From positions 72,786 through 136,785 of the forward strand of contig CAZKPS010000001.1 in assembly GCA_964554765.1 (NCBI GenBank): 64,000 bases of DNA, read 5' to 3'. The translations under genes were made by a program, and so were the position numbers. This DNA is from an uncultured Candidatus Saccharibacteria bacterium (GTDB taxonomy: Bacteria; Patescibacteriota; Minisyncoccia; Phycocordibacterales; CAIRYW01). The notes beneath the pieces were generated by a model, which saw nothing but the letters and a program-made list of their open reading frames with translations, was not told where the DNA came from and ran no database searches. Positions 2,929-63,708 of this stretch are shown in pieces; positions within the stretch are counted from its first letter, which is position 1; every line of letters starts with the position of its first letter.

Positions 2929-4032
2929 CTACTTAGATAATTTCAGAATAATGAAGTCTTTTATTTTTCTCCCTTTAAGTTCATACTCTGGAGTAAAAAT
3001 AGTGTCCACAAGATTGAGTCCCGCATCTTTGAAAACTTTGATATACCATTCAATTGGTCTGTGTGATTCGATGATCTCATAGTTACCTTCCTTTTTGATT
3101 TTTTTATAATGATGGTTGTCTTCATATTTATGCTTTGTCTGCATTCTGAAGTCAATCTTTGATTCTGGAACATCAAATATAAGAGGATTACAAAATCCAA
3201 AATAAGCAAAACCATTATCTTTTATCTTGTCTTTAATATTCTTTACAATATTTTTTACTTCATTCTCTGGCACAATACAGAACACAAGGTTACAAATAAT
3301 AAAGTCAAAATATCCCTCGGGAATATCTTCAACCTTTTTATAAACATTCTCTCTTCCGATTCTCTGTCCAGCTCTTTCTCTCATCTCGGATGAAATATCA
3401 TACAGACGGCTGTCTGCGCCTTTTGCTTTAATTGCTGTAGAAAGAACCGCTGGTCCTCCACCATAATCGAGCACTTTCTTATTTTTCAAATTACCAAGAA
3501 GTGGTATGAGTGTATTGTCATAATATGCGAGCTTTATCTTTTCCGATTCAAGCTCTTTGAGCACCTTACCCCACTGTTTTTGGCCTGACACCATTATTCG
3601 ATTTGAGTCCCACATTATCTTCCAGAATTTATCATAAGATTCTGCGGCCACCTTATTTGAGATCAAGATCCCAATTGGAACTTTGGTCCAAATGATTATA
3701 CCAATCTTGTCATTTCTTATGATTGTCTCTGTGAGCGGTTCAAAATCTTTCTTGATGAATTTGTATTCAACTTTTGGATATTTATTTTTATTTACCCAAT
3801 TTTTCAAGGATTCATTAAAGATGAGTTTTGCTTTGATACCTCTTTTGGCTCTTTCTTTATGGTATTCAAGCCAGAATTCGTCTCCCATCATGAGAGATTC
3901 CTTTGCAGACCCAAATGTGTGGTGCTCCTTTCCCCCAGCTTCAAGTAGAATTCGAAGAAGTTCCCTGATTCCCTCAACCCCCTTGAAAGAGGTATGTTCA
4001 GAATATTTTGTTTTTCGTGCTTTAGCTTTCAT
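2929..4032 (-). CDS. Fusion of a TrmB C-terminal-like (effector) domain with a class I SAM-dependent methyltransferase
   Basis: The N-terminal ~150 aa (GIIIWTKV...AAESYDKFWKIMWD) resembles the C-terminal domains of the TrmB paralogs in this window but has no HTH. The C-terminal half carries MTase motif I (VLDYGGGPAVLS). Confidence 0.55.
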   Translation of the reverse strand: MKAKARKTKYSEHTSFKGVEGIRELLRILLEAGGKEHHTFGSAKESLMMGDEFWLEYHKERAKRGIKAKLIFNESLKNWVNKNKYPKVEYKFIKKDFEPLTETIIRNDKIGIIIWTKVPIGILISNKVAAESYDKFWKIMWDSNRIMVSGQKQWGKVLKELESEKIKLAYYDNTLIPLLGNLKNKKVLDYGGGPAVLSTAIKAKGADSRLYDISSEMRERAGQRIGRENVYKKVEDIPEGYFDFIICNLVFCIVPENEVKNIVKNIKDKIKDNGFAYFGFCNPLIFDVPESKIDFRMQTKHKYEDNHHYKKIKKEGNYEIIESHRPIEWYIKVFKDAGLNLVDTIFTPEYELKGRKIKDFIILKLSK

Positions 4033-4041
4033 ATAAGTTTG

Positions 4042-5340
4042 TTAAGAAAATAATATACTAAGCAGCAACACAAATGCAGATCCAACAAGATACACGTTTA
4101 TATCTTTTAATTTCCCACTGAATACTGACAACACAACATAAGATGCAAATCCTGCAAACATCGCCTTATCAAGACCGAAAGTCCACACGGTAACAACAAC
4201 CATTACAGCGATAGAAACAACATCAATCCAGTTATAATTCTTGAGATCCTTTTTTGTTGGAAAAAGTGTGAATCCTACAAAGAGTAGCGCTCCCGTCGTT
4301 GCGACTACCGGCACCAAGTTTATAAGAGGAACCAGGAAGAGAAAGAGTGACATAAGAATTGCAACAACAACTGCCACAAGCCCGGTTCTACCTCCTTCAC
4401 CAATACCAACAGCACTTTCTACATAAGTAATAAGATTTGACGTTCCAGTCACAGCACCGAGAACCGTTCCTCCTCCATCAACAATGAGTCCCTCTTTAAT
4501 TCCAGAAAGATTTCCGTTTTCATCTACAATAGAAGTATTTCTAGTAAGTCCAATAAACTTTGCAATACTTCCGTAAAAGTCGAGAATAAATAATACGAGA
4601 ATCACAGACCAAATCTTTGGATTGAAAATTATTCCCCAATCAAGTGCGAACATTCCATCAAACATTTCTTTTGAAAAATGAATTGGATTTATTGTCTGAC
4701 TAATTCCTATAAGTGGTGCAACAATAGACGCAACGATAATACTCAAAAGCACTGCACCTTTAATTTTAAATGTTCTAGATACAATCACAGATACAAGTCC
4801 AACGTAAAAGATAATTGCTTCGTGTGATGTCAATGCTCCAATACCAATAATTTTTATTCCATCATATGCAAGCATACCACTCACCTTGAATGCAACAAGC
4901 ATCAAGAAAACACCAACAGATGTAGCAAGCCCCGACTTTAGCTTATCTGGAATTGCTTTAACAATATTTACTCGAAGAGGAGTGAAACTTAAAAGCACTG
5001 TAAGTACTCCTGACCAAAAGACTGCACCCAAAGCTTCTTGCCATGTAAACCCTAAGACACCCACAACAACATATGCAACATAGGCATTCATTTCGAGTCC
5101 TGGAGCAACAGCAAAAGGTAATTTTGCCCAAAGCCCCATGGTCAAAGTCGCAATTACAGATCCGAGAATCGTAGCAAAGAAAATTGCACTTGTATTTAAC
5201 CCCATGGCACCAAGTATTGCTGGATTAACCACAAAAATATAAGACAACGCCAAGAATGTAGAAATCCCAGCAAATATCTCAATTTTGATTGAAGATCCTT
5301 TTTTCGTTATGACAAAGAAATCATTTATTTTTTGAATCAT
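4042..5340 (-). CDS. NCS2-family nucleobase (purine) permease, AzgA/PbuG-like
   Basis: 432 aa, polytopic membrane protein with NCS2 signature regions (AVAPGLEMNAY, GxGA). Confidence 0.8.
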   Translation of the reverse strand: MIQKINDFFVITKKGSSIKIEIFAGISTFLALSYIFVVNPAILGAMGLNTSAIFFATILGSVIATLTMGLWAKLPFAVAPGLEMNAYVAYVVVGVLGFTWQEALGAVFWSGVLTVLLSFTPLRVNIVKAIPDKLKSGLATSVGVFLMLVAFKVSGMLAYDGIKIIGIGALTSHEAIIFYVGLVSVIVSRTFKIKGAVLLSIIVASIVAPLIGISQTINPIHFSKEMFDGMFALDWGIIFNPKIWSVILVLFILDFYGSIAKFIGLTRNTSIVDENGNLSGIKEGLIVDGGGTVLGAVTGTSNLITYVESAVGIGEGGRTGLVAVVVAILMSLFLFLVPLINLVPVVATTGALLFVGFTLFPTKKDLKNYNWIDVVSIAVMVVVTVWTFGLDKAMFAGFASYVVLSVFSGKLKDINVYLVGSAFVLLLSILFS

Positions 5341-5462
5341 ATATTTTTAATTTGTAGCTAATGTGTATAGAATACCACATTTTTATTATTAGGTCAAAAC
5401 AATATTGTATAGAATTATAATAATACGTTCATATATAATGATATAATTCTGTTGATAATTAA

Positions 5463-5490
5463 TTGACAAAATAGAGTGATTTGCTACAAT
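5463..5490 (+). promoter_or_regulatory. Sigma-70-like promoter (TTGACA-16-TACAAT) for a leaderless TrmB-family gene
   Basis: The -10 element ends about 8 nt before the ATG at 5499. Confidence 0.35.
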
Positions 5491-6260
5491 TGGAGTATAT
5501 GAAGGAAAAACTCTTAAAGATAGGCCTCAACCCTACTGAAATAGACATCTACCTCACCCTCCTAGAGCATGGCAAACTTCTGCCTGCAAATATAAGTAAA
5601 TTAACAGGTATCAACCGAAGTACGGCATATGCAGCCTGCGCAGAATTGTTGAAGAAAAACATTATTACAGAAGATCTCTCCGGTAAAACCAAATACTTTG
5701 TAGCACTCCCTCCAGAAAACCTCAAAAATCAAGTAAACAAAAAACTCCGGGAAATCAAAATCGAGGAAAGCATTATTAACGAGCTTATTCCAGAACTCGA
5801 GTCACTCCCAAAGTCCGGTAATTATTCAATACCTAGGGTACAGGTAGTTAATAGTGATGATATAGAGGATTTTCTCTACAAAAACACACCAATATGGGAA
5901 AAGAGTATGCGAGATCTAAATGAGAAGACTTGGTGGGGTTTTCAAGATCATGCCTTTGTAGAAAGTGACAAATATCGAAAATGGATTCTCTGGTATTGGA
6001 ATCGATCATCTGAAGATATGGATTTAAAACTTTTTACAAATGAATCCAAGATTGAAGAAAGAATGAGAGAGAAGAATATAACGAGAAGAAAACTGAAACC
6101 GTGGACTGGAGATAATTTTAGCTCAACACAATGGATACTTGGTGAATATATAGTATCCATTATGACTCGAGGAAAGCTCCACTACCTCGTACAAATTCGA
6201 GACCGTGTACTCGCAGATAGTATGCGAAATATGACAAAAAATCTCTGGATTAAGGATTAA
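5481..6260 (+). CDS. TrmB-family transcriptional regulator (likely true start ATG 5499)
   Basis: The track ORF begins at a TTG. From the ATG it reads MKEKLLKIGLNPTEIDIYLTLLEHG...INRSTAY, a TrmB-type N-terminal wHTH followed by a C-terminal sensing-like domain. Confidence 0.75.
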   Translation: MLQLEYMKEKLLKIGLNPTEIDIYLTLLEHGKLLPANISKLTGINRSTAYAACAELLKKNIITEDLSGKTKYFVALPPENLKNQVNKKLREIKIEESIINELIPELESLPKSGNYSIPRVQVVNSDDIEDFLYKNTPIWEKSMRDLNEKTWWGFQDHAFVESDKYRKWILWYWNRSSEDMDLKLFTNESKIEERMREKNITRRKLKPWTGDNFSSTQWILGEYIVSIMTRGKLHYLVQIRDRVLADSMRNMTKNLWIKD

Positions 6261-6298: not shown

Positions 6299-7526
6299 AC
6301 AATTCCTTTATTTTTTCAAAAAAAGTTTTTTTTGGAATTTCTACAGGTACTGTCACAGAATTTTGTCTTCGATGAGACATAACGACAGATTCGATACCCA
6401 CAAGCGTTTCATCTGCAAGGAAATCAAGCATAGCTCCTCCTCCACTCGAGACAAAAGTGAATTTATCCATAATACCGAGCTTTTCGATTGCGGCTACCAC
6501 ATCACCCCCACCAACAATAGACATTTTACCTGATGCAGCTAAAATTTTTGCAAACTCTTCTGTACTTCCACCAAATCCTCCATCAGCTTTCCCGAGTGGT
6601 CCGTTCCAGAGCACAAACTCTGATTCAGATACTGCAATCTTGAGCATTTTTACTGTTTTTGTACCTACATCCAGAATCTTTTCACCAATACCCACTTCGT
6701 TTGGATGCTTCAAAAGTTTTTCTCCTTTATATGATGTATATACGTCAAGCGGAATAATGAGTTTGTTATGATTGAGTAAATCCCTGATTCCTTCTGGTTC
6801 CCTTTCTGAGACAAGTGAATCACCGACAAAAAAATCTTTTGCTTTGAAGAAATCATTTGCGATAGCCCCTCCCACAAGTACCAGATCCGCAATATCAAGA
6901 AACTTTGAGACAAGAGGTACTTTGGTCTCAAACTTCGCTCCACCCATCACCACGAGAAACGGTTTGTGAGGATAGAATACTTCAGAAAGATGAGTAATCT
7001 CTTGTTTAAATGCACTTCCAAAATATGAAGGAAGTAGTGTCGTGATGGCATCAATAGATGCGTGTTTTCGGTGAGATACAGAGAATGCCTCGTTAATATA
7101 GATATCCCCGAATGATGCAAGGTGTTTTGCAAACTCTATATCATTTGCCTTTTCTCCAGGCCATTTTCGGAGGTTTTCAAAAAGAATGACGTCTCCGTCA
7201 TTCATAGAATCAACAGCGACTCGTGTATTGTTTGAAAAAATATCAGAAACAAAAAAAAGCCGTGGGAATTCTGCTACAAGGTATTTTGCCACAGGTTCAA
7301 GTGTTCCGCCTTCTTTGTCATCAATATGTGCGAGAAGAATCACTTTTGCACCAGCATTTACAAGCTCTTTTATAGTAGGAATAACTCGTCTAATACGGAA
7401 ATCACTCTCTATCTTGTTGTTTTTTATAGAAATATTAAAATCTACTCGCAAAAGTATTTTTTTACCTTTGATAGTATTTGAATCCACATAGAACCTGTCA
7501 GCAAGCATTACCGCGGTCGGTGTCAT
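6294..7526 (-). CDS. pgk: Phosphoglycerate kinase
   Basis: 410 aa with the ILLRVDFN motif and PGK-like hinge and C-terminal domain. Confidence 0.95.
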   Translation of the reverse strand: MTPTAVMLADRFYVDSNTIKGKKILLRVDFNISIKNNKIESDFRIRRVIPTIKELVNAGAKVILLAHIDDKEGGTLEPVAKYLVAEFPRLFFVSDIFSNNTRVAVDSMNDGDVILFENLRKWPGEKANDIEFAKHLASFGDIYINEAFSVSHRKHASIDAITTLLPSYFGSAFKQEITHLSEVFYPHKPFLVVMGGAKFETKVPLVSKFLDIADLVLVGGAIANDFFKAKDFFVGDSLVSEREPEGIRDLLNHNKLIIPLDVYTSYKGEKLLKHPNEVGIGEKILDVGTKTVKMLKIAVSESEFVLWNGPLGKADGGFGGSTEEFAKILAASGKMSIVGGGDVVAAIEKLGIMDKFTFVSSGGGAMLDFLADETLVGIESVVMSHRRQNSVTVPVEIPKKTFFEKIKELF

Positions 7527-7600
7527 ATTGAAAATTAATAAGACCAGTTATTGATCTTATACAAATACTATATCACAGGAGATATAGGCAAACAATAAGT

Positions 7601-8359
7601 CTATTTGCCCGATGTGGATGCCACTATTTGCTCAAACTCTTTGGGTTTTAGACTCGCTCGTCCCATCAGAAATCCTGCAATACCTCCGGCAAGCATTATT
7701 TCTTTGGCACTTTTACCATCAACAGACCCTCCATAGACAATACGGACACCCTCAGCTATTTTAGGCCCGAACATTTCTGTTAACACCTTTTTTATAAAAA
7801 TCGCAGACTCTGCTACATCAGCTGGATTCATAGGACCTGAACTCTTCTTGCCGATAGCCCACACGGGTTCATATGCAATCACACACTTTTTGATATTGTT
7901 CTTAGTGATACCCTGAAGAGAGTCAACGAGCTGCCATTTAATTTCTTGCCAATGTTCTGCACTTTGATTTCGCTCCTTCTCACCTATACAGATAATCGGA
8001 TTTATTTTTGATGCGAGACTAACTATCACCTTTTTTGCTACAATCTCACTCGTCTCACCCATGGCACGCCTCTCAGAATGCCCAATGATGACATAAGTCA
8101 CTCCTAATGACGCCAACTGCCCTGCGCTTACCTCTCCTGTAAATGCACCCTCCTTTTCAAAAGATACATTCTGAGCCCCAAGTAGTGGTCTTTTTGAATT
8201 TTGGAGCAAATGACCAAAAACAAGTGGAGGACACACTACAATATCTGCAAGAGTTTTTTTACTTATCCTTTTAGTTTCCTCAATATTTTTTTTTGCATCC
8301 GCTATTTTAATCGGATTCATCTTCCAGTTGGCGATAATGATTTTTTTCATCCGGTTCAA
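7601..8359 (-). CDS. tpiA: Triosephosphate isomerase
   Basis: IANWKMN, GHSERR and AYEPVWAIG motifs. It lies upstream of pgk on the same strand (tpiA-pgk operon). Confidence 0.95.
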   Translation of the reverse strand: MNRMKKIIIANWKMNPIKIADAKKNIEETKRISKKTLADIVVCPPLVFGHLLQNSKRPLLGAQNVSFEKEGAFTGEVSAGQLASLGVTYVIIGHSERRAMGETSEIVAKKVIVSLASKINPIICIGEKERNQSAEHWQEIKWQLVDSLQGITKNNIKKCVIAYEPVWAIGKKSSGPMNPADVAESAIFIKKVLTEMFGPKIAEGVRIVYGGSVDGKSAKEIMLAGGIAGFLMGRASLKPKEFEQIVASTSGK

Positions 8360-8561: not shown

Positions 8562-10442
8562 TTATTGTGTCACCTCACCCCAGCTATTTATCTGCCAATT
8601 TCCTCCACTACCACCCCCTCCACTACCACTTATTCCGGTTGTAATGAAATCAATAGATGTGAGACCACTGTTGTAAATTATATTCGAACCTCCATTTAGA
8701 ACTAGTCTTTTTGCAATAGCACTGTTCACAACACCACCACCAGAAATAGCCATTGTACCGTATGGAGCAAACACCACCATAGAACCAGATCCACCTTGTA
8801 TATCTACTGCATTACCGTTTTCTGGACCACTACAATTTCCAGTAGTTGGACACTGACTTGTCGTCATTGCTACCATATAGCTGCCACTCGTACCCGACCC
8901 TCTCATATCAGCCCCTCCGGTCACAATAATTCTTCCGTCAGCAATAATCATCCCATCGGATGCCCCACCAGATGAGGCGAGCTTAATCACAGATCCTCCA
9001 CTTAGATCAATATATCCGGTTACCCACACAGTCCCGGTCAGATTCAAAGTCGCTCCGCCACTCACAACAAGATTACCAACAATTTTCTTTGGCCCTAAAG
9101 ATGCCACTTGCCCTCCACCAAGACTGTATGTGCCATTATTTACACCACCTGCAGTTGCGACCGCTTTCCAATCAATAATGTTTTGATCTGTTATCGGATA
9201 ATCAAGAGGTGTAGGATCTGCACGACTAGTGTTACATATTTTTGTAGAATTGCTTAGGTTGTACAGATTTGTACCGCTTTGGCAATAAGCTGTGCCCGAA
9301 ACAGAAATATTACTAATCTGGTTCGCCCAAGCGTCACCAGAACCACCGGTGCCAATCTGAAGTCGTGTATACTGACCATTTCCAGAAATGGTATTCGGCA
9401 CCCCTCCTAAATAAATATCAAAATATAAATCATAACTTGATGGGATAATATTTACCCATGTATTTTGTCCATTACTTGAACTCCACTTACCGTATCGCGC
9501 ACCACCATTTGTATATATGTTACCTGCAGTCCCTGCGAGTGTAAAATATTTTGTTGTCGACACTGTTGGAGTATCAATTACAATCCAATATGTCGACCCT
9601 ACAGTAAGACTAGGTGCCTGTGTGATAGGAATATTTACATAGGTAAACGATGTGGTTACTGCACTTGCAGCAAGTGTTCCAGTACCTACAACACCACTAT
9701 TGGATGGTTTACCGCTCGCATCAGGTACAATACGAATAGTTGCATCCGATGGTGCTCCAGCTATTGTTTTTTTAATATAAAGCCTTACACTCGTGAGCTG
9801 TGCTGTTGACGTCACCTGAAAACTTTGCGCCAAATCCTGCGAAGCAGTAGTTGTACCCATATTAAGTGACAGCGGCGATGTTCCATCAGTATAACTATTC
9901 GTCTGATTTACAGTTGCAGGAGAGCTATTGCCCACAGTCACAGAGCCAGTTATTGAATTCACCGCGGAGTCAGCAGTTATGCTTCCATTTGAATATACAT
10001 CACCTGTAATAGTCGAACCCCCACCAATACTAATGCCTCCTGTGCCTATTTGTGCTCCATATGCAAATGCTATGACGGAACCTACTGGGGTTAGATATGT
10101 TGAGGCATAGCGAGTAGTATCACCACTTGTCCCAGTGGTAAGTATCTGCTGTTGTGTTCCTGCGAGAGTCACGGAGGCAGATGCTGCAACACCATTTGAA
10201 AATGGTAACGATAAAGTCGAAGGTAGAGTTCGTCCAAGTCTTAGTCTATAATACGCATCTTCATTTACACTATCTGCCGCCAGATAGCTCTGTCGAGACT
10301 TTGATGCCTGGAGTACGGACTTTACCTGATTGGAAGTTGGAATCACAACAGCAGAAATAACAGCCACAGAAATCACTAAAAAGAAAACCACGGTGGTAAT
10401 GATAGCAAAGCCTCTATTTGTTTCTATTTTTTTTGCACTCAC
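8562..10442 (-). CDS. Large pilin-like / pilus-associated protein (possible tip adhesin or minor pilin)
   Basis: 626 aa. The N-terminus (KKIETNRGFAIITTVVFFLVISV) is prepilin-like but lacks Glu at position +5. The rest is Gly/Ser/Thr-rich. It is the last gene of the pilB-pilC-pilin operon. Confidence 0.5.
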   Translation of the reverse strand: MSAKKIETNRGFAIITTVVFFLVISVAVISAVVIPTSNQVKSVLQASKSRQSYLAADSVNEDAYYRLRLGRTLPSTLSLPFSNGVAASASVTLAGTQQQILTTGTSGDTTRYASTYLTPVGSVIAFAYGAQIGTGGISIGGGSTITGDVYSNGSITADSAVNSITGSVTVGNSSPATVNQTNSYTDGTSPLSLNMGTTTASQDLAQSFQVTSTAQLTSVRLYIKKTIAGAPSDATIRIVPDASGKPSNSGVVGTGTLAASAVTTSFTYVNIPITQAPSLTVGSTYWIVIDTPTVSTTKYFTLAGTAGNIYTNGGARYGKWSSSNGQNTWVNIIPSSYDLYFDIYLGGVPNTISGNGQYTRLQIGTGGSGDAWANQISNISVSGTAYCQSGTNLYNLSNSTKICNTSRADPTPLDYPITDQNIIDWKAVATAGGVNNGTYSLGGGQVASLGPKKIVGNLVVSGGATLNLTGTVWVTGYIDLSGGSVIKLASSGGASDGMIIADGRIIVTGGADMRGSGTSGSYMVAMTTSQCPTTGNCSGPENGNAVDIQGGSGSMVVFAPYGTMAISGGGVVNSAIAKRLVLNGGSNIIYNSGLTSIDFITTGISGSGGGGSGGNWQINSWGEVTQ

Positions 10443-10451
10443 AGAAATATA

Positions 10452-10967
10452 TTAATGATAATAACCTCGAAGCACTGCTGTACCATAAAACTTTTCGCTT
10501 ACATCTGGTGTAGAAGTTGGACCTTCCATCACTATCTCATATTTGATCGCTTGTGATGTTGTGGTGGACATAATTTTAAAATGGAGAGATGTCACCTGCA
10601 TATTTGAGAGTGTGACAGGTCCAGTTGTAACACCATTATCATCAACCATGACACGGTCCCCTGCTCTATAAAACCTACTTGTTCGTGTACTTCCGCCAGA
10701 CGTTGGTATAGTTAGCGTCAACTCATCATTGTCATATGGATAGCTCGTGACAAGAGAGGCACTAGATGCAGCCCGAATTTCTCTGACGATCTTATCACTA
10801 AATGCTATTGAGGAATTTTCTACTCTTCTTGTTGCTTTAACCACACTATTTGCAGTCAAAAGCATATTAATCACTGTAGTAATAACACCCACCAGAAGAG
10901 CCATAAGTGATACATATATGATAGTCTCAATCAAAGAATAACCTTTTTTAGCTTCTACTGATTTCAT
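10452..10967 (-). CDS. Type IV pilin-like protein (prepilin-type N-terminal domain)
   Basis: KKGYSLIETIIYVSLMALL is a class III signal peptide with Gly-1 and Glu+5. Confidence 0.7.
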   Translation of the reverse strand: MKSVEAKKGYSLIETIIYVSLMALLVGVITTVINMLLTANSVVKATRRVENSSIAFSDKIVREIRAASSASLVTSYPYDNDELTLTIPTSGGSTRTSRFYRAGDRVMVDDNGVTTGPVTLSNMQVTSLHFKIMSTTTSQAIKYEIVMEGPTSTPDVSEKFYGTAVLRGYYH

Positions 10968-11464
10968 TAATTATTGAATATATTAAATAGGTAAGTTTCA
11001 CCTGATTTCGTTGTTGTTGATACACCTTCCTTCCACGATACAGTAATCAATGCTTTTCGACTGTTATTATCAGTCGTCCCTCCACTTGTTACCACATTAA
11101 AATTGTTATCACGAGACACTGCTGATAAAACAAAGTCTATTTGATATCGGTTTTCGAGCTCAATATTTGTTGTTGTGGCAGTCCAAGTACCTGACCCTAC
11201 TGTAGAATCCCAATAGAGATGATACGTAGATCCAAGAGTAAGCGAAGCGATATTTGCCGTGTAACCAGAATCTCGAAGATAGTGTAGAACCTCAACCCCC
11301 TCTTCGACTAACTGTGTCGCCTTGAGTGCTCGCACATTTGAAAGTGAATATCGTGCAACGGCACTATATACAGAGACAAGTGTAAAAAGTGTCAGTGATA
11401 TAATACTTGAGGCAATAATTACCTCAATCATACTGAATCCCCTTTTTTTATTTTTAATATTCAT
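10967..11464 (-). CDS. Type IV pilin-like protein (prepilin-type N-terminal domain)
   Basis: KRGFSMIEVIIASSII prepilin motif. Start and stop overlap the neighbouring genes. Confidence 0.7.
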   Translation of the reverse strand: MNIKNKKRGFSMIEVIIASSIISLTLFTLVSVYSAVARYSLSNVRALKATQLVEEGVEVLHYLRDSGYTANIASLTLGSTYHLYWDSTVGSGTWTATTTNIELENRYQIDFVLSAVSRDNNFNVVTSGGTTDNNSRKALITVSWKEGVSTTTKSGETYLFNIFNN

Positions 11465-11497
11465 TTTTTAGTTATAACCCGTTACCTCTGACCCTAA

Positions 11498-11956
11498 TTA
11501 TTGTATATCAATAACTCCCGTTGCGTAAATAGTGATAGTCTTTGTTTTAGTCCCATCGGCCGATGTCACCGTTATTGTACCTGTCTTACTTGCAGCACCT
11601 GTTAGTTTATTAAAGTACAAACTAGTGGCACCTCCTGTAAGTGTTATGGCACTGATATTTGACTTCCCTGAGACATCGTATGATGTCTCGATATTAGAGA
11701 CATTGTAGGTAGTTGTTTTGAATACTGTCACCTTTTTTGTTTCAAAGAATACACCATGTTCCAAAGAATTAACTGAGTTTATAGATTCTGTTTTTGCCTT
11801 ATCAATATACGAAACAATATTTGACACATCTTTATCAAGCGAGATTGAATTCGCAAGTCCTGAAAATACTGAGACAGATGCAGCTCCAAGTACTCCAAGA
11901 ATAGCGATACTCATAAGAATCTCTATTATTGTTATTCCTTTATTTTTTGATTTCAT
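11498..11956 (-). CDS. Type IV pilin (probable major pilin)
   Basis: KGITIIEILMSIAILGVLGA prepilin motif, 152 aa, directly downstream of pilC. Confidence 0.7.
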   Translation of the reverse strand: MKSKNKGITIIEILMSIAILGVLGAASVSVFSGLANSISLDKDVSNIVSYIDKAKTESINSVNSLEHGVFFETKKVTVFKTTTYNVSNIETSYDVSGKSNISAITLTGGATSLYFNKLTGAASKTGTITVTSADGTKTKTITIYATGVIDIQ

Positions 11957-11971
11957 TACTACTCAAATGGA

Positions 11972-13174
11972 CTAAATATTATTAAGCACAGTATACATCG
12001 GTGTAATCATAGATACCGCAAAAAAACCCACCGAAAGCCCTATAATCACCATCAAAAAAGGCTCGATAATCGTAGACATATTTTTTGTCTTTTGATCCAC
12101 CTCATCCTCATAATATGTAGCAACTTCTTTCAACATAGTAGAAAGATTACCTGTCTCCTCTCCCACTGATACCATTTCCACTATAAAAGCAGGGTAAAGA
12201 TTTGGGTATTTTGAAATAACATCAGACATTGGCATTCCCTTTTCTATTACCGCAACAACCCTTTCTAACACTTCTTTATAATATGAGTTTTGCATAACCT
12301 CCTTAGTTATTTCTGCAGAACGAATAACAGGCACTCCGGCTGAGAGTAGTGAAGCAAGTGTTCTGGATGTTCTTGCGGTATTCATCTCTTTAGCAATATC
12401 CTTGATAAGAGGTGCATGCAAAACAATAAAATCCATTACTCTTTTACCCTTCTTTGTCTTCAAAGAACTAGAGAGGGATATGACAAGAAAGACAATAATC
12501 GCAATAAATATAAAGTAGTGATTTTGAAGAAAGTCAGAAACATTGATCACAAACTGTGTTGATGCAGGTAATTCTGCATGAAGTTCCTTGAATGTACCAG
12601 TAAGCGATGGTACAACAAATGTAAGCATCAAAATCCCGATCACTACCATAAGCGAAAGAATAATGGCTGGATAAATCAATGCACCTTTTACCCTCTTATA
12701 CAATGTATTTGCCTTTTCCATCTGACTCCCGACAATTTTTAGAGACTCAGCCAATGAACCGGACTCCTCTCCTGCCTTTACCATCGCCACAAACAGATCG
12801 TTAAAAACATCAGGGAATTCCTGCATAGCCTCGTGTAGAGTTCTGCCTTCAGCAACAGATGTTTCAAGTCTGTTTAAAACAGTTTTGAGCTTCTTGTTTT
12901 TTGCTTGCTTTTCCATTACCTGTATTGAACGAGAAAGAGAAAGTCCGGCAGCAAGCATCGAACCCAAATTTCGTGCAAAGAAAATTTTTTCAGATGTTTT
13001 CACTTTGCCATTCAAAAATGGAATATTAATATCTCTTGATTTTTCTTCAGTGATTGTAAGTGGTGTAATATTTTCCTTTTTAAGCATCCGAAAGAGCATA
13101 TATCTATCAGACGCCTCGAACATTCGTTCGCTGGTTCCCCCTTCTGCAGTTGTAAATGTTATTTTATATTGCAT
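11972..13174 (-). CDS. pilC: Type IV pilus / T2SS platform protein PilC (GspF family)
   Basis: 400 aa with duplicated GspF domains and three TM segments (LIYPAIIL..., [12 protein letters not shown]...). Confidence 0.85.
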
Positions 13175-13255
13175 TCTTAAATACTGATTAAAGATTTAAG
13201 ATGTATGATTTAAGAATTATTCATAAATCCTAAATCATATATCTTAATTCCTTCA

Positions 13256-15007: not shown

Positions 15008-15065
15008 CGATAATATTATATCAAAGAATTGTATATAGTATATGGCATATGTACATTAAAAAAAT

Positions 15066-15104
15066 AAAATACCCTGCAACTTTGTTGCAGGGTATTTTAT
15101 TTTT
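15066..15104. terminator. Terminator between the Cys-rich protein gene and pilB
   Basis: Hairpin accctgcaac-tttg-ttgcagggt with a T-run after it and an A-run before it. Confidence 0.6.
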
Positions 15105-17226: not shown

Positions 17227-17228
17227 TC

Positions 17229-24593: not shown

Positions 24594-24692
24594 ATATTAA
24601 GAGTATCGAAATCACTTTATGTTGTCAAATTGTTTAGACATATTTACCATTACCCTATTATGTTGCACACTTACCCACAGACACAACCGTCC

Positions 24693-27170: not shown

Positions 27171-27479
27171 AGTGATAAGTGTGTTTAAAAGAACATATTC
27201 TGTAGAGGTACAGAAATAAAAAACCCTCCGGATCGCTCCGAAGGGTTTTGTGCCTTTAACAAAGATATCATTCGCAATAAAGCAAAAAACCGTTCGGAGC
27301 GATAAAACCAACGGCTTGCCACCACTTTGTGTTCTGAATATTGAATTTGCTTATTTTTTGAATCATTTGATTTTGTGTTTTGATTTCCTTATATCCCTCA
27401 TTAGTATTCACCCTTCAAATCAAAACTTATTTATGATATTATCACCATACTAGTATAGTAATACATAAAAGTCAAATCT

Positions 27480-29931: not shown

Positions 29932-30105
29932 AAATGCATGCTACCAAAAATCATATTTTGTGTCAAAAAAATATACACAATTTGTTTATATAATACAAAA
30001 TATTATTATTTTATAATACTATAATAGTTTTACTATTTATGACGATTATTTACACTTATTGACTTGTATTGTTAAATCTACCTAGATCAAAGCACAATCC
30101 GTCCT

Positions 30106-51647: not shown

Positions 51648-51734
51648 AGACTTTTGATGTATTTCCTAATAGATTTTTATAAAATCTTTTCCACAGCTTG
51701 TCAAAATTAGAATTAGGAGTAGTATACTGAACCA

Positions 51735-59804: not shown

Positions 59805-59830
59805 ATCAAAAAGTAGAAATCAAAAATAAT

Positions 59831-59866
59831 AAATCCGCGGCACCTAAAGGTGCCGCGGATTTTTAA
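59831..59866 (+). terminator. Terminator after pnp
   Basis: 12-bp stem atccgcggcacc / ggtgccgcggat followed by TTTTAAT. Confidence 0.7.
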
Positions 59867-59867
59867 T

Positions 59868-59905
59868 ATAAAAATTAGTCTGCAAGATTTTCATCTTGCA
59901 GACTT
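59868..59905 (-). terminator. Convergent minus-strand terminator
   Basis: Hairpin gtctgcaaga-ttttca-tcttgcagac, followed on the minus strand by TAATTTTT. Confidence 0.55.
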
Positions 59906-59944
59906 GGGTTCAACAAGTATCCTGAAGTGTAAGACAACAAGAAT

Positions 59945-60592
59945 CTAAAAGGTTTCTCTTGTTTCGCTTGTATCTATGTAACCAATCACTGTTTGTGGTA
60001 TTACATTTTCATTAACACCAGAGAACCATTCTTCAGATCTAACGATTCTTGGATTGTGGAGATCCTCAAAGTCGACAACAAGAACACTTCGGCAGAGATG
60101 TGGGTAAATACGAATTTGATTCCACCCATAACCGATTTTAAACCCTCCGTGGGGCACACGATTATAGTATCTTTCACACCACCCTCTTTTCTCTTTCTCA
60201 ACAAGTTCCCATACTTGTGGACGCATAAGTGAGAGGAACACTATCCTAACATACCTCCTCATCATAAATATGTCGGATACACATTGGTGCTCAATTGACC
60301 TTGGTTTTTGAATTAAGTCACTATTTTTCTCAAAATATCCTTGTATCAGGTAATTTGAGACACTGTGTCTTGGCAGAAGTTTCCGTGCTCTCATCACAAA
60401 CTCTTCTTCTCCCATCTCCAAATACGGTGATTTTTGATCATGCCTAAACAGTTCAATTTGTGAGGGATGGTGTATAGGTAGAAGATTCAAACGAATACCC
60501 CTCCTCTTCAAGAAAGGTTCTCCGATATGTTGAAAGAGAAAACGATTTGAAAAAAACAGATTCATCATAATTATATTTGGTTCGACCAGCAA
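59945..60592 (-). CDS. Hypothetical protein
   Basis: 215-aa ORF. The true start may be internal (MNLFFSNRF). No recognisable domain. Confidence 0.45.
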   Translation of the reverse strand: MLVEPNIIMMNLFFSNRFLFQHIGEPFLKRRGIRLNLLPIHHPSQIELFRHDQKSPYLEMGEEEFVMRARKLLPRHSVSNYLIQGYFEKNSDLIQKPRSIEHQCVSDIFMMRRYVRIVFLSLMRPQVWELVEKEKRGWCERYYNRVPHGGFKIGYGWNQIRIYPHLCRSVLVVDFEDLHNPRIVRSEEWFSGVNENVIPQTVIGYIDTSETRETF

Positions 60593-60719
60593 AACTTCAT
60601 GTTATACCGGCTTCACCTCCTCCTAACATCATTATTCAATAATTTCGTCAAAAATCAATATTAAAAAATTGATTTTTTAGTATTTATAGTATAAACTGAC
60701 GAAAATAATTCGTCGTCAT

Positions 60720-61505
60720 ATGGAAAATGTATTAAAACAATTGGGTTTAAATGAAAAGGAGATTTTAGTCTATAAATCACTCTTGGAAAGAGGTGCTTCG
60801 ACATCATCTTCACTTGCAAATGTTATTGACTTGCCACGACAGACTATCTACTCAATCCTTCAAAAACTATGTGATGAAGGAGTAATTGAGAAAGGCCCGT
60901 GGAAAGGGGCACACAAATTCATTGCCGACCCAACCAATCTTTCATCAATAGTGAGATTTAGGCAGAAAAAACTTACCCAAATAGGAAATACAATTGAGGA
61001 ATTGATGCCAGAACTTCTCACAATAACAAAACTCAGAGCAAACCGAAAACCTTCGGTTCAGTATTATGATGGGGTATTTGGGTTGAAGCGTCTTTTTGAT
61101 GAGATCATTGAACAATACAAAAGAAAAGAAGATACTATGTTTCGAGGATTCGGAATTAATTATTTTGAAAATACAGACATACAAGAAATTTTAAATGATT
61201 TTGTTAGAGAGAGATATAAATATGGTATAAAAACTCACTTACTTATTGGTAAAGGGGGGAATGATTTTGGCATTACGATAGATGGATCAACAACTTTAGG
61301 AAGAGAAGTCCGTAGTATAAATATGGAAGCACAAAATGCTGGCATCTACCTAGTAGGAGATCGTATTTATTTATTTTCTTACGAGGATGATGTGGGAATT
61401 ATGATTGAACAGAAACTTATTGCACAATTATTAAAAAATATTTTCGATTTGGAGTGGGATAAGGCAAAAGAGCTTGATAAAGAAATAAGAAGATTAGAGA
61501 AGTAA
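60720..61505 (+). CDS. TrmB-family transcriptional regulator
   Basis: wHTH (ILVYKSLLERGASTSSSLANVIDLPRQTIYSILQKL). The C-terminal ...WDKAKELDKEIRRLEK is identical to 62920..63708. Confidence 0.7.
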   Translation: MENVLKQLGLNEKEILVYKSLLERGASTSSSLANVIDLPRQTIYSILQKLCDEGVIEKGPWKGAHKFIADPTNLSSIVRFRQKKLTQIGNTIEELMPELLTITKLRANRKPSVQYYDGVFGLKRLFDEIIEQYKRKEDTMFRGFGINYFENTDIQEILNDFVRERYKYGIKTHLLIGKGGNDFGITIDGSTTLGREVRSINMEAQNAGIYLVGDRIYLFSYEDDVGIMIEQKLIAQLLKNIFDLEWDKAKELDKEIRRLEK

Positions 61506-61530
61506 TAAACAGTAAGTAATAAGTAATCAA
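61456..61530 (+). repeat. ~75-nt direct repeat, copy 1 (3' end of the TrmB paralog plus 20 nt downstream)
   Basis: gggataaggcaaaagagcttgataaagaaataagaagattagagaagtaataaacagtaagtaataa, with 1 mismatch versus the copy at 63661. Confidence 0.75.
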
Positions 61531-61532
61531 GT

Positions 61533-61568
61533 GAATGCATCGTGCCCTTCGGGCGCGATGCATTTTGC
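61533..61568 (+). terminator. Terminator after the TrmB paralog
   Basis: Hairpin atgcatcgtgccc-ttcg-ggcgcgatgcat (one G-U pair) followed by TTTGC. Confidence 0.6.
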
Positions 61569-61916: not shown

Positions 61917-61941
61917 AATATTTGACTAAGTTTGAATGAAC

Positions 61942-62022
61942 ATTAACCTACAAACCAACGACACTCGTCGCGGGTTTGAAAAGTTCCACTTGTTAAGCAC
62001 AAGTGGGAAAGCTTTTTACCAT
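61942..62022 (-). repeat. 81-nt conserved double-hairpin module, copy 1, ending exactly at the stop of the upstream ORF
   Basis: It is ~90% identical to 62397..62477. On the minus strand it reads taa aaagctttcc CCACTTG-tgcttaa-CAAGTGG aacttttcaaa cc CGAC-gagt-GTCG ttggtttgtagg: two small hairpins, each followed by a U-rich tract. Confidence 0.7.
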
Positions 62023-62333
62023 CCACCGCCACAAATTCTAGTAGTTCTCGGAGGAGGGTTATAAAAAGGTGATCCTATTTTGACAAAGGCATACCCCGTA
62101 CACTTAATTTTACTGAGAATATTTTTTTGCTCTTCTATTGTATAAGCAAGCCACAAAGCATGCCTCAGTTCGATGAGTTCCTTGTGTTCTGTTTGATGAC
62201 CCACGAATGAAATTGTCACATTAGTTGACCAGCATGAGACAGGGAAGTTACTCAGATACACCTCTTCTATCTTATATTTCATACCCCTGAACCAACCGGT
62301 GCAGAAGCGAATTAGGAAAATAATCAAATTCAT
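62016..62333 (-). CDS. Small hypothetical protein, paralog B of a tandem pair
   Basis: 105 aa. The stop codon and final Trp are supplied by the TTACCAT end of the 81-nt module. Its coding status is uncertain. Confidence 0.3.
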   Translation of the reverse strand: MNLIIFLIRFCTGWFRGMKYKIEEVYLSNFPVSCWSTNVTISFVGHQTEHKELIELRHALWLAYTIEEQKNILSKIKCTGYAFVKIGSPFYNPPPRTTRICGGGW

Positions 62334-62396
62334 AACAACTAAGGTCTCTCACCTCTTGCCCGAATGGTTATGCCGGGATCGCATTTATTAAAGAAC

Positions 62397-62477
62397 ATTA
62401 ACCTACAAACCAACGACACTCGTCGCGGGTTTGAAAAGTTCCACTTGTTAAGCACAAGCGGAAAAGCCAGTTACCAT
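62397..62477 (-). repeat. 81-nt conserved double-hairpin module, copy 2
   Basis: Same module as copy 1. It ends at the stop of the small membrane ORF 62471..62731, which also terminates ...W*. Confidence 0.7.
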
Positions 62478-62731
62478 TTCAACCAAAGAAAAATGACCCT
62501 AATGACCATTGCACATGTTGCCGACAAGATGAATAGAAGTGTCAATAAATAAATTACAGGGTTCCAAAGGAAGATATTAATTTCGGGAGGGAGAAAAATT
62601 GGCAACACATAAGCAAAAATCAGTTCAAAATACCGACTCTGTTCGATCCTCTCGATGATTTTATTGTTTAGGTAGACCATAACAATAAAAATAATGACAG
62701 TGGTAGTGACTATGGCATTCATAAGTATCAT
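62471..62731 (-). CDS. Small two-TM membrane protein (hypothetical)
   Basis: 86 aa, very hydrophobic. It is the first gene of the minus-strand small-ORF array. Confidence 0.35.
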   Translation of the reverse strand: MILMNAIVTTTVIIFIVMVYLNNKIIERIEQSRYFELIFAYVLPIFLPPEINIFLWNPVIYLLTLLFILSATCAMVIRVIFLWLKW

Positions 62732-62919
62732 TTTTATATATTTTGTTGTTTCAGGAACAGTCCGCTCTTACTGTTCACAGTAAAACATATAAATGATGTA
62801 TGTAAATATATGTCAACATAAATAAAATAATAGTTGTTGATAAACATAGCTTTTTTTGGAATATTTAGATTTTGTCGATGCGGATTGACACAAATAGATC
62901 TGCTTTGTATACTTAAAAT

Positions 62920-63708
62920 ATGGAAAACAAAGGGAATTTCGTTGGTGCCCTCATCAATATGGGTCTCCCAGAAAAGGAGGCTGCAGTTTATGTATCTCTC
63001 CTCGGGCTGGGACTTGCAACAGTAACCGAAATTGCCAATAAATCAGGAATCAATCGAACAACTGTCTACGATATCCTTTCTTCACTATCCCAGAAAGGAC
63101 TTGTGAGCATTTCGGGTAAAGAACCAAAGCAAGAATACAGATCTGAAAATCCTGATAAGCTACTAACATATCTCAAAAACGAACTTGAGCGAAAGGCTCA
63201 AAGTGTGAGGTATGCAGAGCTCATGCTTCCGGAACTTAAATCAATACACAAAATAGGTGAAAGACCTCGAATCAAATTTTATGAAGGTGAGGAAGGTTTG
63301 CGAGAAGTATACGAAGACACTCTCACATCAGAAGAAACTATTTTGGCATATGCCGCAGTGGATGATGTGAACAAAGGGATTGCAAATTATTTCCCCAAAT
63401 ACTATAAAAGACGCGCTGCAAAAAACATTCCTATCCGTGCTATATTTCCCGATACTCCCGTGGCAAGAGAACGATCGGACCTTGATAAAGAGGAGAGGCG
63501 GGAAAGTCTTTTGGTGCCATTTGAAAAATACAGCTTTACTCCCGAAATAAATATCTATGACAACAAAGTTATGATCGCATCGTGGAGAGAAAAGCTTGGA
63601 ATAATTATTGAAAGCGCCGAGATTGCAGATGCCATGAAAAAAATATTTGAACTCTCATGGGATAAGGCAAAAGAGCTTGATAAAGAAATAAGAAGATTAG
63701 AGAAGTAA
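62920..63708 (+). CDS. TrmB-family transcriptional regulator (close paralog of 29134..29931)
   Basis: wHTH (AAVYVSLLGLGLATVTEIANKSGINRTTVYDILSSLSQKGLVSISGKEPKQEYR). The C-terminus is identical to 60720..61505. Confidence 0.75.
   Translation: MENKGNFVGALINMGLPEKEAAVYVSLLGLGLATVTEIANKSGINRTTVYDILSSLSQKGLVSISGKEPKQEYRSENPDKLLTYLKNELERKAQSVRYAELMLPELKSIHKIGERPRIKFYEGEEGLREVYEDTLTSEETILAYAAVDDVNKGIANYFPKYYKRRAAKNIPIRAIFPDTPVARERSDLDKEERRESLLVPFEKYSFTPEINIYDNKVMIASWREKLGIIIESAEIADAMKKIFELSWDKAKELDKEIRRLEK

Follow-up and report, generated by a model that had tools for sequence, protein, structure and literature searches.

TrmB and TrmBL2 have an HTH, a helix for dimerisation and a C-terminal domain in common, and an extra sugar-binding domain is carried by TrmB and TrmBL1 only, TrmBL2 being without the sugar-binding subdomain (PMC4877046). 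TrmBL2 is highly conserved, is present in all Thermococcales, binds DNA largely non-specifically and forms filaments (PMC4877046). Here we describe a 64-kb stretch of DNA, henceforth the window, that encodes seven regulators, T1 to T7, of the TrmB family, a group of DNA-binding proteins typical of archaea. All seven have the anatomy of TrmBL2, namely an N-terminal wHTH, an amphipathic helix of ~30 residues and a single PLD-fold domain. TrmBL2 of Pyrococcus furiosus (PF0496) and Thermococcus kodakarensis (TK0471; PDB 5bpd, 5box, 5bqt) shares with them the domain order, a length of ~260 aa, the extended wHTH, the long dimerisation helix, the one PLD-like C-terminal domain without sugar-binding subdomain and the high conservation of one type through its clade, which is the T7 type here. 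The window proteins are nevertheless not its orthologs, with ~20% identity and 28 bits against the 530-bit NCBIfam cut-off. Their host is a bacterium with sigma-70 promoters rather than BRE/TATA and with many paralogs per genome rather than one, and the promoter of the window type itself bears a specific, conserved dyad, whereas binding by TrmBL2 is largely non-specific (PMC4877046). The sugar-sensing regulators TrmB/TrmBL1 of Thermococcales and Halobacterium TrmB (PDB 3qph, 2f5t; PF01978 plus PF11495) differ in that the window proteins lack PF11495 and are ~80 aa shorter, and the window shows neither a TGM or TACT-N7-8-type operator nor a link to sugar transport genes.

Results

The host was recognised as an ultra-small bacterium of the Patescibacteria (CPR) from its genes for RecJ, NusA, trigger factor, PilB/PilC, RNase Y and ClpP and from the Patescibacteria/Paceibacterota names of near-identical proteins. 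An earlier note on this DNA had listed seven full-length TrmB-like genes with TrmB-family N-terminal HTHs, and all seven were confirmed at their positions. PF01978, the TrmB N-terminal wHTH, was matched by 7/7 ORFs in the Pfam search with 33.9–61.5 bits (E 3e-8 to 7e-17; gathering score 25.6 bits). On the forward strand lie T1 (5499–6260, 253 aa, 44.9 bits) and T6 (60720–61505, 261 aa, 52.2 bits), both divergent members, and T7 (62920–63708, 262 aa), the type conserved most widely. T2 (23862–24593, 243 aa, 33.9 bits), T3 (29134–29931, 265 aa, 56.3 bits), T4 (31444–32241, 265 aa, 49.6 bits) and T5 (45047–45781, 242–244 aa, 46.5 bits) are on the reverse strand. The regulators measure 243–265 aa, and the start of T5 is probably ATG 45775. 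For T1 the ORF listing gives TTG 5481, but the source-contig gene call (253 aa) and the promoter geometry favour ATG 5499.

A six-frame scan of all window ORFs of at least 50 aa with a profile of the seven paralogs recovered exactly these seven regulators (E 1e-85 to 1e-108). Its sole further match was ORF 2929–4032, residues 15–148 of which aligned with profile positions 117–253 (E 3e-13). The count of TrmB-like genes is therefore complete for the 64-kb window, and it is beyond chance. In the source assembly an eighth paralog of 249 aa lies ~5 kb past the window's left end. The prominence of TrmB-like proteins in transcriptional control, as proposed earlier, is supported within the window, where they make up 7/8 of the candidate sequence-specific regulators recognised. 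The eighth is a TrpR-like protein (27480–27782); HU is encoded at 37147–37419. The density is uneven: the 21 kb that surround the ortholog in a distant relative contain only a single TrmB gene. The C-terminal tail motif (M/L)GIII...IA(E/D)...W given in the earlier note is real but looser than written: the Trp alone is invariant across the seven paralogs, the tail reading YLVQIRDRVLADS...W in the gene at 5499 and TGVIIEDPTIHG...W in that at 31444.

The paralogs are mutually 20–58% identical, T3 and T7 being 58% identical by pairwise BLAST. Five of the seven have their own, differing nearest clusters elsewhere, among them those of T2 (P0375, 45%), T4 (P0247, 61%) and T5 (P0243, 77%), whereas for T1 and T6 the proteins retrieved included none related at more than about 37% identity. 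The T7 type is present in 80 different Patescibacteria genomes at 56–87% identity. With clusters defined at 50% identity, the family comprises 22,039 clusters at E ≤ 1e-3 and 3,347 at E ≤ 1e-30; it is very large and is found in Patescibacteria and DPANN-like archaea. At just 20–58% identity, the paralogs appear to be old and diverged rather than products of a recent local expansion, and the lineage-specific expansion suggested earlier is misleading at genome scale. The segment with T6 is missing from a close relative, as judged by synteny with L094, and the final ~100 nt of T6 copy the 3' end of T7 in a 104-nt direct repeat (61419–61522 and 63622–63725, 84% identity). T1 is transcribed divergently from a permease/methyltransferase operon, an arrangement with an orthologous counterpart at L005/L006; genes for PGK and TIM adjoin T1, and this neighbourhood is not kept in L005.

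For the shared C-terminal domain the Pfam search gave no match to PF11495 or to another family, even at E ≤ 10. In T7, the wHTH (residues ~4–75) is followed by a long helix (80–109) and the PLD-like domain (112–250), and its AF2 model (pLDDT 92.6) likewise has a helix at 80–109 and a beta/alpha C-domain. Foldseek with this model returned TrmBL2 chains as the best matches over 260–270 columns (E 5e-15), with PLD-family proteins ranking next, and the paralog profile aligned with TrmBL2 end to end (positions 6–255 against 5–262 of PDB 5bpd, E 2e-9). The alignment of the C-terminal domain with TrmB's sugar-binding domain took in only 122 of the latter's 233 residues. The models indicate that the shared domain is one PLD-fold module without HKD motif, equivalent to the TrmBL2 C-terminal domain. 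By the same comparison its counterpart in TrmB is the first half of the sugar-binding domain, and the subdomain that binds the sugar is absent.

Sequence profiles matched no PLD family and gave only a marginal E of 0.37 to a poxvirus PLD-family enzyme. The HxK(x)4D motif is absent from all eight proteins, the fusion described below included, so that none has the catalytic histidine, and most paralogs retain only the PLD-type lysine (xDxK); this sets them apart from the single-domain PLD members Nuc, NucT and Zucchini/PLD6. With a nearly invariant Arg and the conserved Lys at the PLD lysine position, the domain could accommodate a small-molecule or phosphate ligand, and a sensor role is conceivable. 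The domain is modular: it is single in the regulators, stands alone before a SAM methyltransferase and is in tandem in relatives. Some related proteins bear 2–6 extra tandem copies, one of them on an archaeal-type contig, and some family members show 3–7 matched stretches, the repeated units each ending in F..LWNQ.

The gene at 2929–4032 (reverse strand) was correctly described earlier as the C-terminal domain only, joined to a class I SAM-dependent methyltransferase. Its PLD-like domain (residues ~10–146, 3595–4005) was found by the paralog profile, the Pfam search revealed no wHTH in it, and the enzyme domain (residues ~171–367, 2932–3522) matched Methyltransf_23 (46.9 bits) and Methyltransf_11 (37.2 bits) above cut-off over residues ~180–280. 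Homology of the regulators' C-terminal domains to each other and to the fusion N-domain was also borne out (hhalign probability 98.2%, E 4e-14, 131 columns), and the predicted order of secondary structure is the same in the fusion N-domain and the T7 C-domain. Foldseek, too, placed SAM methyltransferases on top, in support of the enzyme domain. Directly upstream, with a 9-nt gap, lies the gene for a xanthine/uracil-family permease of 432 aa (4042–5340, reverse strand; PF00860, E 7e-30), and the pair occurs in three differing neighbourhoods (the window, L003/L004 and L005/L006). The fusion is genuine and conserved, and its gene invariably comes after one for a nucleobase-type permease. Free-standing methyltransferases of ~228 aa, far commoner than the fused form, follow a Xan_ur_permease gene in the same order in CPR bacteria and DPANN archaea; they are 60–67% identical to the enzyme half, the C-terminal 60% of the fusion, and lack the N-terminal PLD-like domain. 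In L007 the permease is paired with such an unfused methyltransferase. The predicted promoter of the permease gene carries a palindrome, AATGTG-N10-CACATT (5360–5381), that overlaps its −10 region and is a weak candidate operator; in L003, L005 and L007 it is not kept before the permease gene.

The sequences upstream of T1–T4 and T7 read as sigma-70 promoters close to consensus, in positions that suit leaderless mRNAs. The T7 promoter (62872–62919, forward strand) has −35 TTGACA at 62885–62890 and −10 TATACT at 62908–62913, 6 nt from the ATG, and over its −35 lies a dyad, TTTTGTC-N-TTGACACAA, as a candidate autoregulatory operator. On the reverse strand, the dyads TTGTG-N13-CACAA before T3 (29932–29980; −10 TAGCAT), TTTTGT-N12-ACAAAA before T4 (32242–32288; −10 TATTAT) and TGTC-N10-GACA before T2 (24594–24640; a −10-like hexamer) likewise cover a −35 TTGACA, with 6 nt to the ATG in each. 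T1 (5450–5498, forward strand) has TGT-N10-TTGACA, −10 TACAAT and 8 nt to the ATG, a geometry repeated in its L005 ortholog. TTGACA-N16-18-TAnnnT occurs at only 6 sites in the 64 kb, 5 of which end 6–8 nt short of a TrmB gene's ATG. T6 lacks the TGT-N-TTGACA type of promoter, and so does the differing region upstream of T5.

The T7-type layout of dyad and −35 is kept in 59 of 80 orthologous loci, the TGT being invariant 9 nt upstream of TTGACA (−12 to −10 from the hexamer) and CAA following the hexamer in 81–98%. When 80 metagenome matches to the exact 19-base motif TTGTGGAAAANNNTTGACACAA were examined, 66 sat directly upstream of a TrmB-like ORF. The dyad was not found at the promoters of the window's other genes. 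The earlier note had named TACT-N7-AGTA-like operators as ones to look for; none is positioned upstream of window genes, and the TGT...ACA dyad is there instead, as a probable autoregulatory operator. Archaeal TrmB motifs have their half-sites about 11–12 bp apart. The half-site cores of the dyad are ~16 bp apart, centre to centre, and this unlike spacing is a point against the operator reading.

Discussion

We propose, with a probability of roughly 70%, that the window regulators are ancient paralogs of TrmBL2 architecture that act as dyad-binding autorepressors, their PLD-like domain serving as a pairing module. The earlier note had taken the C-terminal domain for the TrmB effector domain and saw in the fusion a hint that it is reused as a sensor for an enzyme. 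On that reading the seven would be ligand-sensing regulators, and a sugar or ligand sensor would control the methyltransferase in the fusion. This would accord with the strong conservation of the domain in the fusion, with an Arg and a Lys that could line a pocket and with a permease gene before the fusion, which would suit sensing of an imported compound. We consider it unlikely. PF11495 is unmatched, and the proteins, just like TrmBL2 (PMC4877046), have no counterpart of the subdomain with which TrmB/TrmBL1 bind sugar; the effector or sensor label is therefore unsupported, and homology of the domain does not imply a sensor role. Just 122/233 residues are covered, no logic of sugar transport or of a glycolytic regulon is apparent, PGK/TIM not staying beside T1 in L005, and tandem arrays of 2–6 extra copies better suit a structural or pairing module. 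That the fusion itself is a truncated TrmB pseudogene joined to a methyltransferase by assembly, gene-calling error or recent decay could be argued from the larger number of free-standing enzymes and from the missing wHTH, as expected of a 5'-truncated gene. This is effectively refuted: independent assemblies show the fusion as a single unbroken ORF, ~28 clusters at 72–100% identity span its full length, the N-domain (70–88% among fusion homologs) and linker are conserved like the enzyme half, and the AF2 model is confidently folded over residues 11–140 (block pLDDT mostly 86–96).

T7, and perhaps T3, might instead be a nucleoid-associated, chromatin-like protein that coats DNA with low specificity like TrmBL2 of Thermococcales, rather than a specific transcription factor. 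In structure and in full-length sequence TrmBL2 is the closest match, T7 is unusually conserved over a very divergent phylum (56–87%, 80 genomes), TrmBL2 likewise being highly conserved in Thermococcales (PMC4877046), and its near-consensus promoter suggests high expression. This seems rather improbable, as the precise conservation of the dyad before its own gene points to sequence-specific recognition, the 28 bits against the TrmBL2 equivalog cut-off speak against orthology and the genome already has HU. The conserved sequence upstream of the −35, in turn, could be read as a promoter-strength element. A conserved TTTT..GGAAAA lies at about −50 to −39, where a UP element for the RNA polymerase alpha subunit would sit, and partly resembles the UP-element consensus, TTTTnnAAAA, in promoters otherwise near consensus. 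Part of this conservation could be a promoter signal rather than operator. As an account in place of a TrmB-like operator it is doubtful: the invariant bases are TGT, which the UP consensus lacks, they are mirrored by ACA/CACAA in or after the −35, conserved in 81–98% though sigma needs none, and the full motif occurs almost solely at the promoters of TrmB-like genes and is absent from those of other window genes.

Our results show the architecture of the proteins, their homology and distribution and the conservation of the promoter; we infer autorepression and the part played by the fusion domain, and take DNA binding and oligomeric state over from TrmB/TrmBL2. Each regulator would most likely form a coiled-coil dimer or higher oligomer on the DNA dyad, and cross-talk may occur among paralogs with a common NR(S/T)xxY start of the recognition helix. 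The PLD-like domain would on this reading be a portable protein-protein module rather than a proven ligand sensor, and in the fusion it would probably make the enzyme dimeric or link it to a TrmB-like partner. Transcription of T1–T4 and T7 would start at or beside the ATG, giving leaderless mRNAs. The right arm of the dyad lies in and just past the −35 hexamer; autorepression through occlusion of the −35 would be the simplest account. What is new here is five near-consensus sigma-70 promoters of leaderless type with a TGT...ACA dyad over the −35.

Results

Seven TrmB-like proteins with the TrmBL2 architecture

The seven TrmB-like ORFs proposed in the earlier note were all found: T1 (5499–6260, +), T2 (23862–24593, −), T3 (29134–29931, −), T4 (31444–32241, −), T5 (45047–45781, −), T6 (60720–61505, +) and T7 (62920–63708, +). 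Their N-terminal HTHs belong to the TrmB family as had been claimed, with all seven scoring 33.9–61.5 bits against PF01978, the TrmB N-terminal winged helix (gathering threshold 25.6). A profile built from the seven paralogs was run on all six-frame ORFs of at least 50 residues in the window. It recovered exactly T1–T7, and the sole further match was to residues 15–148 of the fusion protein encoded at 2929–4032 (−), which aligned to profile positions 117–253 (E = 3e-13); this protein has no PF01978 domain above threshold. The recognition helix starts with NR(S/T)xxY in T1–T4 and T7, with NRITNF in T5 and with PRQTIY in T6. As for the conserved tail described as (M/L)GIII...IA(E/D)...W, the tryptophan is invariant but the remainder is looser than claimed.

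The paralogs are 243–265 aa long. TrmBL2, at about 260 aa, consists of a wHTH, a dimerisation helix and one PLD-like domain at the C-terminus and lacks a sugar subdomain; the window paralogs share this layout. A whole-protein profile of the paralogs aligned to TrmBL2 from end to end (positions 6–255 versus 5–262 of 5bpd), the terminal tryptophan included. The best Foldseek matches of the AlphaFold model of T7 (pLDDT 92.6) were TrmBL2 chains (260–270 columns, E = 5e-15), and proteins of the PLD family came next. After the wHTH, the T7 model (AF2) contains a helix at residues 80–109 (pLDDT ~95) that aligns with the TrmBL2 helix; it is predicted to correspond to the long amphipathic helix that dimerises in TrmB and TrmBL2. 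The additional sugar-binding domain is confined to TrmB and TrmBL1 (PMC4877046), and this domain of the sugar-sensing TrmB sensu stricto and TrmBL1 is without counterpart in the window proteins. The paralogs also fall outside the TrmBL2 orthologous group (NCBIfam NF041141), for which the best window score was 28.3 bits (T7) against an equivalog cut-off of 530 bits. TrmBL2 itself is described as an abundant tetramer that coats DNA non-specifically and forms filaments (PMC4877046).

The C-terminal half had been read as a TrmB effector domain shared by the regulators and the fusion. The whole proteins of the window gave no match to PF11495 at E ≤ 0.01, and the isolated C-terminal domains matched no Pfam family at E ≤ 10, PF11495 included, and no Pfam assignment was therefore retained for the domain. 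Against PDB sequences, the profile of the isolated domain found nothing significant, the best matches being an adenosine kinase (E = 0.29) and a poxvirus PLD-family enzyme (E = 0.37). The domain, which has the PLD alpha/beta fold, was placed solely by structure comparison and not by its isolated sequence profile. A regular-expression search for HxK(x)4D (HKD) found this motif in none of the eight proteins; by sequence inspection, we take the residues at the HKD positions to be (Y/F)D(N/D)K, YGEK, VGDR or RNDK. The window proteins thus have the TrmBL2 architecture, and their second domain is an inactive PLD-fold module and not the known effector-binding part of TrmB. Homology among these domains stands; the shared unit is a PLD-like module of the TrmBL2 type, unmatched by PF11495 and at most a putative effector domain. 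The PLD-like module in place of an effector domain is the main correction to the earlier reading.

A PLD-like domain fused to a methyltransferase

The methyltransferase fusion claimed at 2929–4032 (−) is real and joins the C-terminal-type domain of the regulators, lacking the wHTH, to an enzyme. Its N-domain aligned to the C-domain of the regulators with an hhalign probability of 98.2% (E = 4e-14, 131 columns), and the predicted order of strands and helices is identical in the two. The C-terminal half matched Methyltransf_23 (46.9 bits, cut-off 27) and Methyltransf_11 (37.2 bits, cut-off 21.2) and is a Rossmann-like class I SAM methyltransferase with a GxGxG-type sequence, VLDYGGGPA. No NCBIfam equivalog cut-off was reached by the fusion. 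The best 50 Foldseek matches listed for the fusion model were all SAM-dependent methyltransferases; dominated as they were by this half, they were uninformative as a test of the N-domain.

About 28 protein clusters (72–100% identity) represent the fused form. Its N-domain is as well conserved as the enzyme half (70–88% identity), and a Xan_ur_permease gene encoding 432–433 aa (4042–5340, − in the window) lies directly upstream of the fusion in three different neighbourhoods. These three features mark the fusion as genuine and under selection. A divergent TrmB-like gene is close to the pair in two of the three neighbourhoods; in the third, type-IV-secretion-like genes surround the pair, and the locus as examined contains no TrmB gene. 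An unfused methyltransferase of ~228 aa, 60–67% identical to the enzyme half of the fusion, is far commoner. Its homologs include proteins named from the DPANN archaea Aenigmarchaeota and Woesearchaeota, and it too directly follows a Xan_ur_permease gene in one context examined. The permease and the methyltransferase form a conserved two-gene module, which has probably been exchanged between domains. The earlier note had further suggested that an effector domain is reused in the fusion as a sensor; ligand sensing by the added domain is unsupported.

The pairing of permease and SAM methyltransferase was met in four contexts in all, fused in the window (2929–5340) and at loci L003 and L005, and unfused at L007. 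A palindrome at 5360–5381 was considered as a site through which T1 might regulate the permease operon; it is not conserved in the other contexts and is a weak lead only.

The PLD-like unit recurs in other domain arrangements

An exhaustive profile search for the family returned 22,039 clusters (50% identity) at E ≤ 1e-3, 3,347 of them at E ≤ 1e-30. Many of the top matches are 500–1,080 aa long and have, behind a single complete regulator module, two to six PLD-like units, these extra units each ending in F..LWNQ. Such tandem-array relatives include P0241, P0244, P0257 and P0260 (loci L096 and L097), of up to 1,061 aa. One adjoins ribosomal protein genes, among them one matching Pfam Ribosomal_L5e. 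Since we take Ribosomal_L5e to be an archaeal and eukaryotic family, we read this contig as archaeal, probably DPANN-like. In another family member, P0292, the protein is fused to a long polytopic (multi-pass) membrane region. The tandem arrays, the membrane-region fusion and the methyltransferase fusion thus show the PLD-like unit to be a mobile, repeatable module. PLD-fold domains normally act in pairs, and a mobile, repeatable unit would therefore fit a pairing or architectural role; ligand binding would be compatible as well.

The paralogs are old and unevenly distributed

Pairwise identities among the seven paralogs are 20–58%. For T2, T3, T4, T5 and T7, the closest cluster outside the window differs from one paralog to the next, at 45–95% identity; among the proteins retrieved, nothing was closer than about 37% to T1 or about 30% to T6. 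Orthologs of T7 occur at 56–87% identity in 80 different Patescibacteria genomes, with hosts that include Nomura-, Taylor-, Jackson-, Doudna-, Uhr-, Giovannoni- and Yonathbacteria. The earlier note had seen a lineage-specific expansion. The low identities, the separate outside clusters and the spread of the T7 type argue instead for an old, phylum-wide diversification, and not a recent local burst, as judged from T2, T3, T4, T5 and T7.

TrmB-like genes account for seven of the eight candidate regulators that could be recognised in the window, the other being a TrpR-like protein; HU is also present. PMC9426492, citing Lemmens et al. 2019, gives the share of TrmB among transcription factors as ~0.5% in bacteria and ~12% in archaea. 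The density in the window is striking for a bacterium. About 5 kb to the left of the window, the source assembly carries an eighth paralog (7110–7859 of locus L092). In the close relative GCA_040384245.1 (locus L094), two further TrmB-family genes (12764–13516 and 20727 onward) are found within 10 kb downstream of the T7 ortholog. The density is not uniform, as the 59%-identical T7 ortholog of a distant relative (L186) is the single TrmB gene in the surrounding 21 kb.

The window, with a G+C content of 37–43%, carries bacterial housekeeping genes for RecJ, PGK, TIM, PilB/PilC, NusA, trigger factor, RsmE, peptide deformylase, ClpP, RNase Y, HU, the CCA-adding enzyme, a XerC-like recombinase, S15 and PNPase, together with four tRNA genes. 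Near-identical proteins are labelled "Patescibacteria group bacterium" or "Candidatus Paceibacterota", and the window is accordingly assigned to a metagenome-assembled genome of the CPR/Patescibacteria (ENA ERZ15185866). An NCBIfam search of the neighbouring hypothetical genes brought out no regulon theme.

Several other genes were recorded in passing. A free-standing 189-aa protein (26742–27311, −) matches PF08915 (E = 4e-20), the archaea-specific editing domain of threonyl-tRNA synthetase, and is a further archaeal-type gene in a bacterial genome. The trigger factor (21714–22745, −) has only 343 aa, its N- and C-terminal domains being matched with no PPIase (FKBP) match between them. A type IV pilus-like cluster (8562–18362, −) encodes a PilB-type ATPase (13256–15007), and a PilC-type platform protein (11972–13174). 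A TPR protein belongs to the cluster as well, and five flanking ORFs of 152–707 aa have no Pfam match.

A conserved promoter with a candidate operator

The motif TTGACA-N16-18-TAnnnT has six matches in the window, five of which end 6–8 nt before the ATG of T1, T2, T3, T4 and T7. A −10 element so close to the start codon implies leaderless mRNAs. Shine-Dalgarno motifs are nearly missing across the gene starts of the window (for example at 2453, 7526, 53125, 55623, 31338 and 48411), and a TAnnnT hexamer also ends ~6 nt before the ATG of the HIT, PGK, XerC, S15, peptide deformylase, CCA enzyme, NUDIX and trigger factor genes. Because of these two features, leaderless initiation looks like a general rule of this genome, and the many first genes that share the spacing rule it out as a TrmB-specific trait. 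What is special to T1–T4 and T7 is a perfect −35 hexamer with a TGT 9–10 nt upstream; this TGT is the left arm of an inverted repeat whose other arm is made up of the ACA of TTGACA and the bases that follow.

The whole promoter layout is kept in 59 of the 80 loci orthologous to T7, and the TGT is invariant there; the consensus of this type is TTTTGTGGAAAAnnnTTGACACAA, or TTGTG-N12-CACAA. The exact motif TTGTGGAAAANNNTTGACACAA, searched for across metagenomes, gave 88 stretches; 80 of these were examined, and 66 of the 80 have a TrmB-like ORF directly downstream. We interpret the TGT...ACA dyad as a candidate autoregulatory operator overlapping the −35 box, and repression by occlusion of that box would be the simplest reading. 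An UP-element-like promoter signal is a partial alternative that could explain the conserved upstream sequence. T5 and T6 have no such TGT/−35 promoter; its lack goes with their different recognition-helix start, a suggestive correlation.

The operators of TrmB sensu stricto and TrmBL1 are the TGM (TATCAC-N5-GTGATA) or TACT-N7-8-GAGTA near promoters, and our scan covered TACT-N7-AGTA. With up to one mismatch, 36 matches were found in the window versus 24 ± 4.7 expected, a number reached in one of 100 shuffles. This is a mild excess, and none of the matches in the window is placed at a promoter; the one exact match falls within the coding sequence of T1. The expectation of TACT-N7-AGTA-like operators upstream of neighbouring genes was thus not borne out, and the upstream regions bear a different dyad.

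Two further occurrences of such elements were noted. Upstream of the ExoIII-like gene (50808–51647), the sequence TTGACAAGCTGTGGAAAAGAT at ~51684–51704 (−) includes the left half TGTGGAAAA of the T7-type element; it is not followed by TTGACACAA and may be a chance occurrence or a half-site. At ~3375–3400 of L005, a TGT-N9-TTGACA promoter of the TrmB type, TGTTAAAAAATTATTGACAACA, precedes a non-TrmB gene of 168 aa that is divergent from the T1 ortholog, which hints that the dyad may also serve target genes.

Possible recombination around T6 and T7

The 3′ ends of T6 and T7 form a 104-nt direct repeat of 84% identity (61419–61522 and 63622–63725), both ending ...KAKELDKEIRRLEK; the proteins are otherwise only 28% identical. 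This difference suggests recombination or gene conversion between the two paralogs. Synteny between L094 and the window extends from ExoIII as far as PNPase and resumes at the T7 ortholog. The stretch between PNPase and T7 contains a dubious ORF and T6 in the window (59805–61513), and two minus-strand genes of 265 and 111 aa in L094 (8339–9880). The 53 nt that stand just after PNPase in L094 are found, at 91% identity, after T6 in the window (61514–61566), and T6 on that basis lies within an inserted or replaced segment. A non-coding element of ~85–140 nt occurs twice nearby, at 61935–62022 and 62390–62477 (also 62328–62467), with copies 93% identical. It is 87–88% identical to intergenic DNA of L094 (9327–9474), above the identity of the adjoining coding DNA. 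An Rfam search of the ORF-poor DNA around T6 gave no match at the gathering threshold and none convincing below it. The element may be a small RNA or a regulatory element.

Discussion

Relative to what is known, the window proteins extend the TrmB/TrmBL2 kind by new, uncharacterised members from bacteria, accompanied by a new domain combination (PLD-like domain and methyltransferase) and by a distinctive, highly conserved promoter with a candidate operator. Within the library searched, no paper joined TrmB or PF01978 with Patescibacteria or CPR, and matches for TrmB with DPANN were apparently unrelated, judged by titles and abstracts.

One further reading is speculative, with a probability of roughly 0.12. 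A family typical of archaea would be the principal transcription-factor family in at least some Patescibacteria lineages, and CPR bacteria and DPANN archaea would probably have exchanged it. The PLD-like domain would be a hetero-pairing "plug" by which non-DNA-binding proteins, for example the permease-linked methyltransferase or tandem-array proteins, join or titrate TrmB-like regulators. Here, binding of the fusion to T1 would tie transcription to the uptake of a nucleobase-like compound, or to its modification after import.

A large part of bacterial diversity belongs to the Patescibacteria, and to our knowledge almost nothing is known on the control of transcription in them. The mobile PLD-like module raises the question of what job this domain does, for TrmBL2 as well. 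The phylum-wide ortholog group of T7, with its conserved leaderless promoter and candidate operator, offers a concrete experimental handle. Among the Patescibacteria, Saccharibacteria can be manipulated genetically by transposon or allelic-exchange systems (PMC10633639). If the share of seven in eight regulators held genome-wide, it would suggest that a bacterial lineage uses a regulator toolkit of archaeal style.
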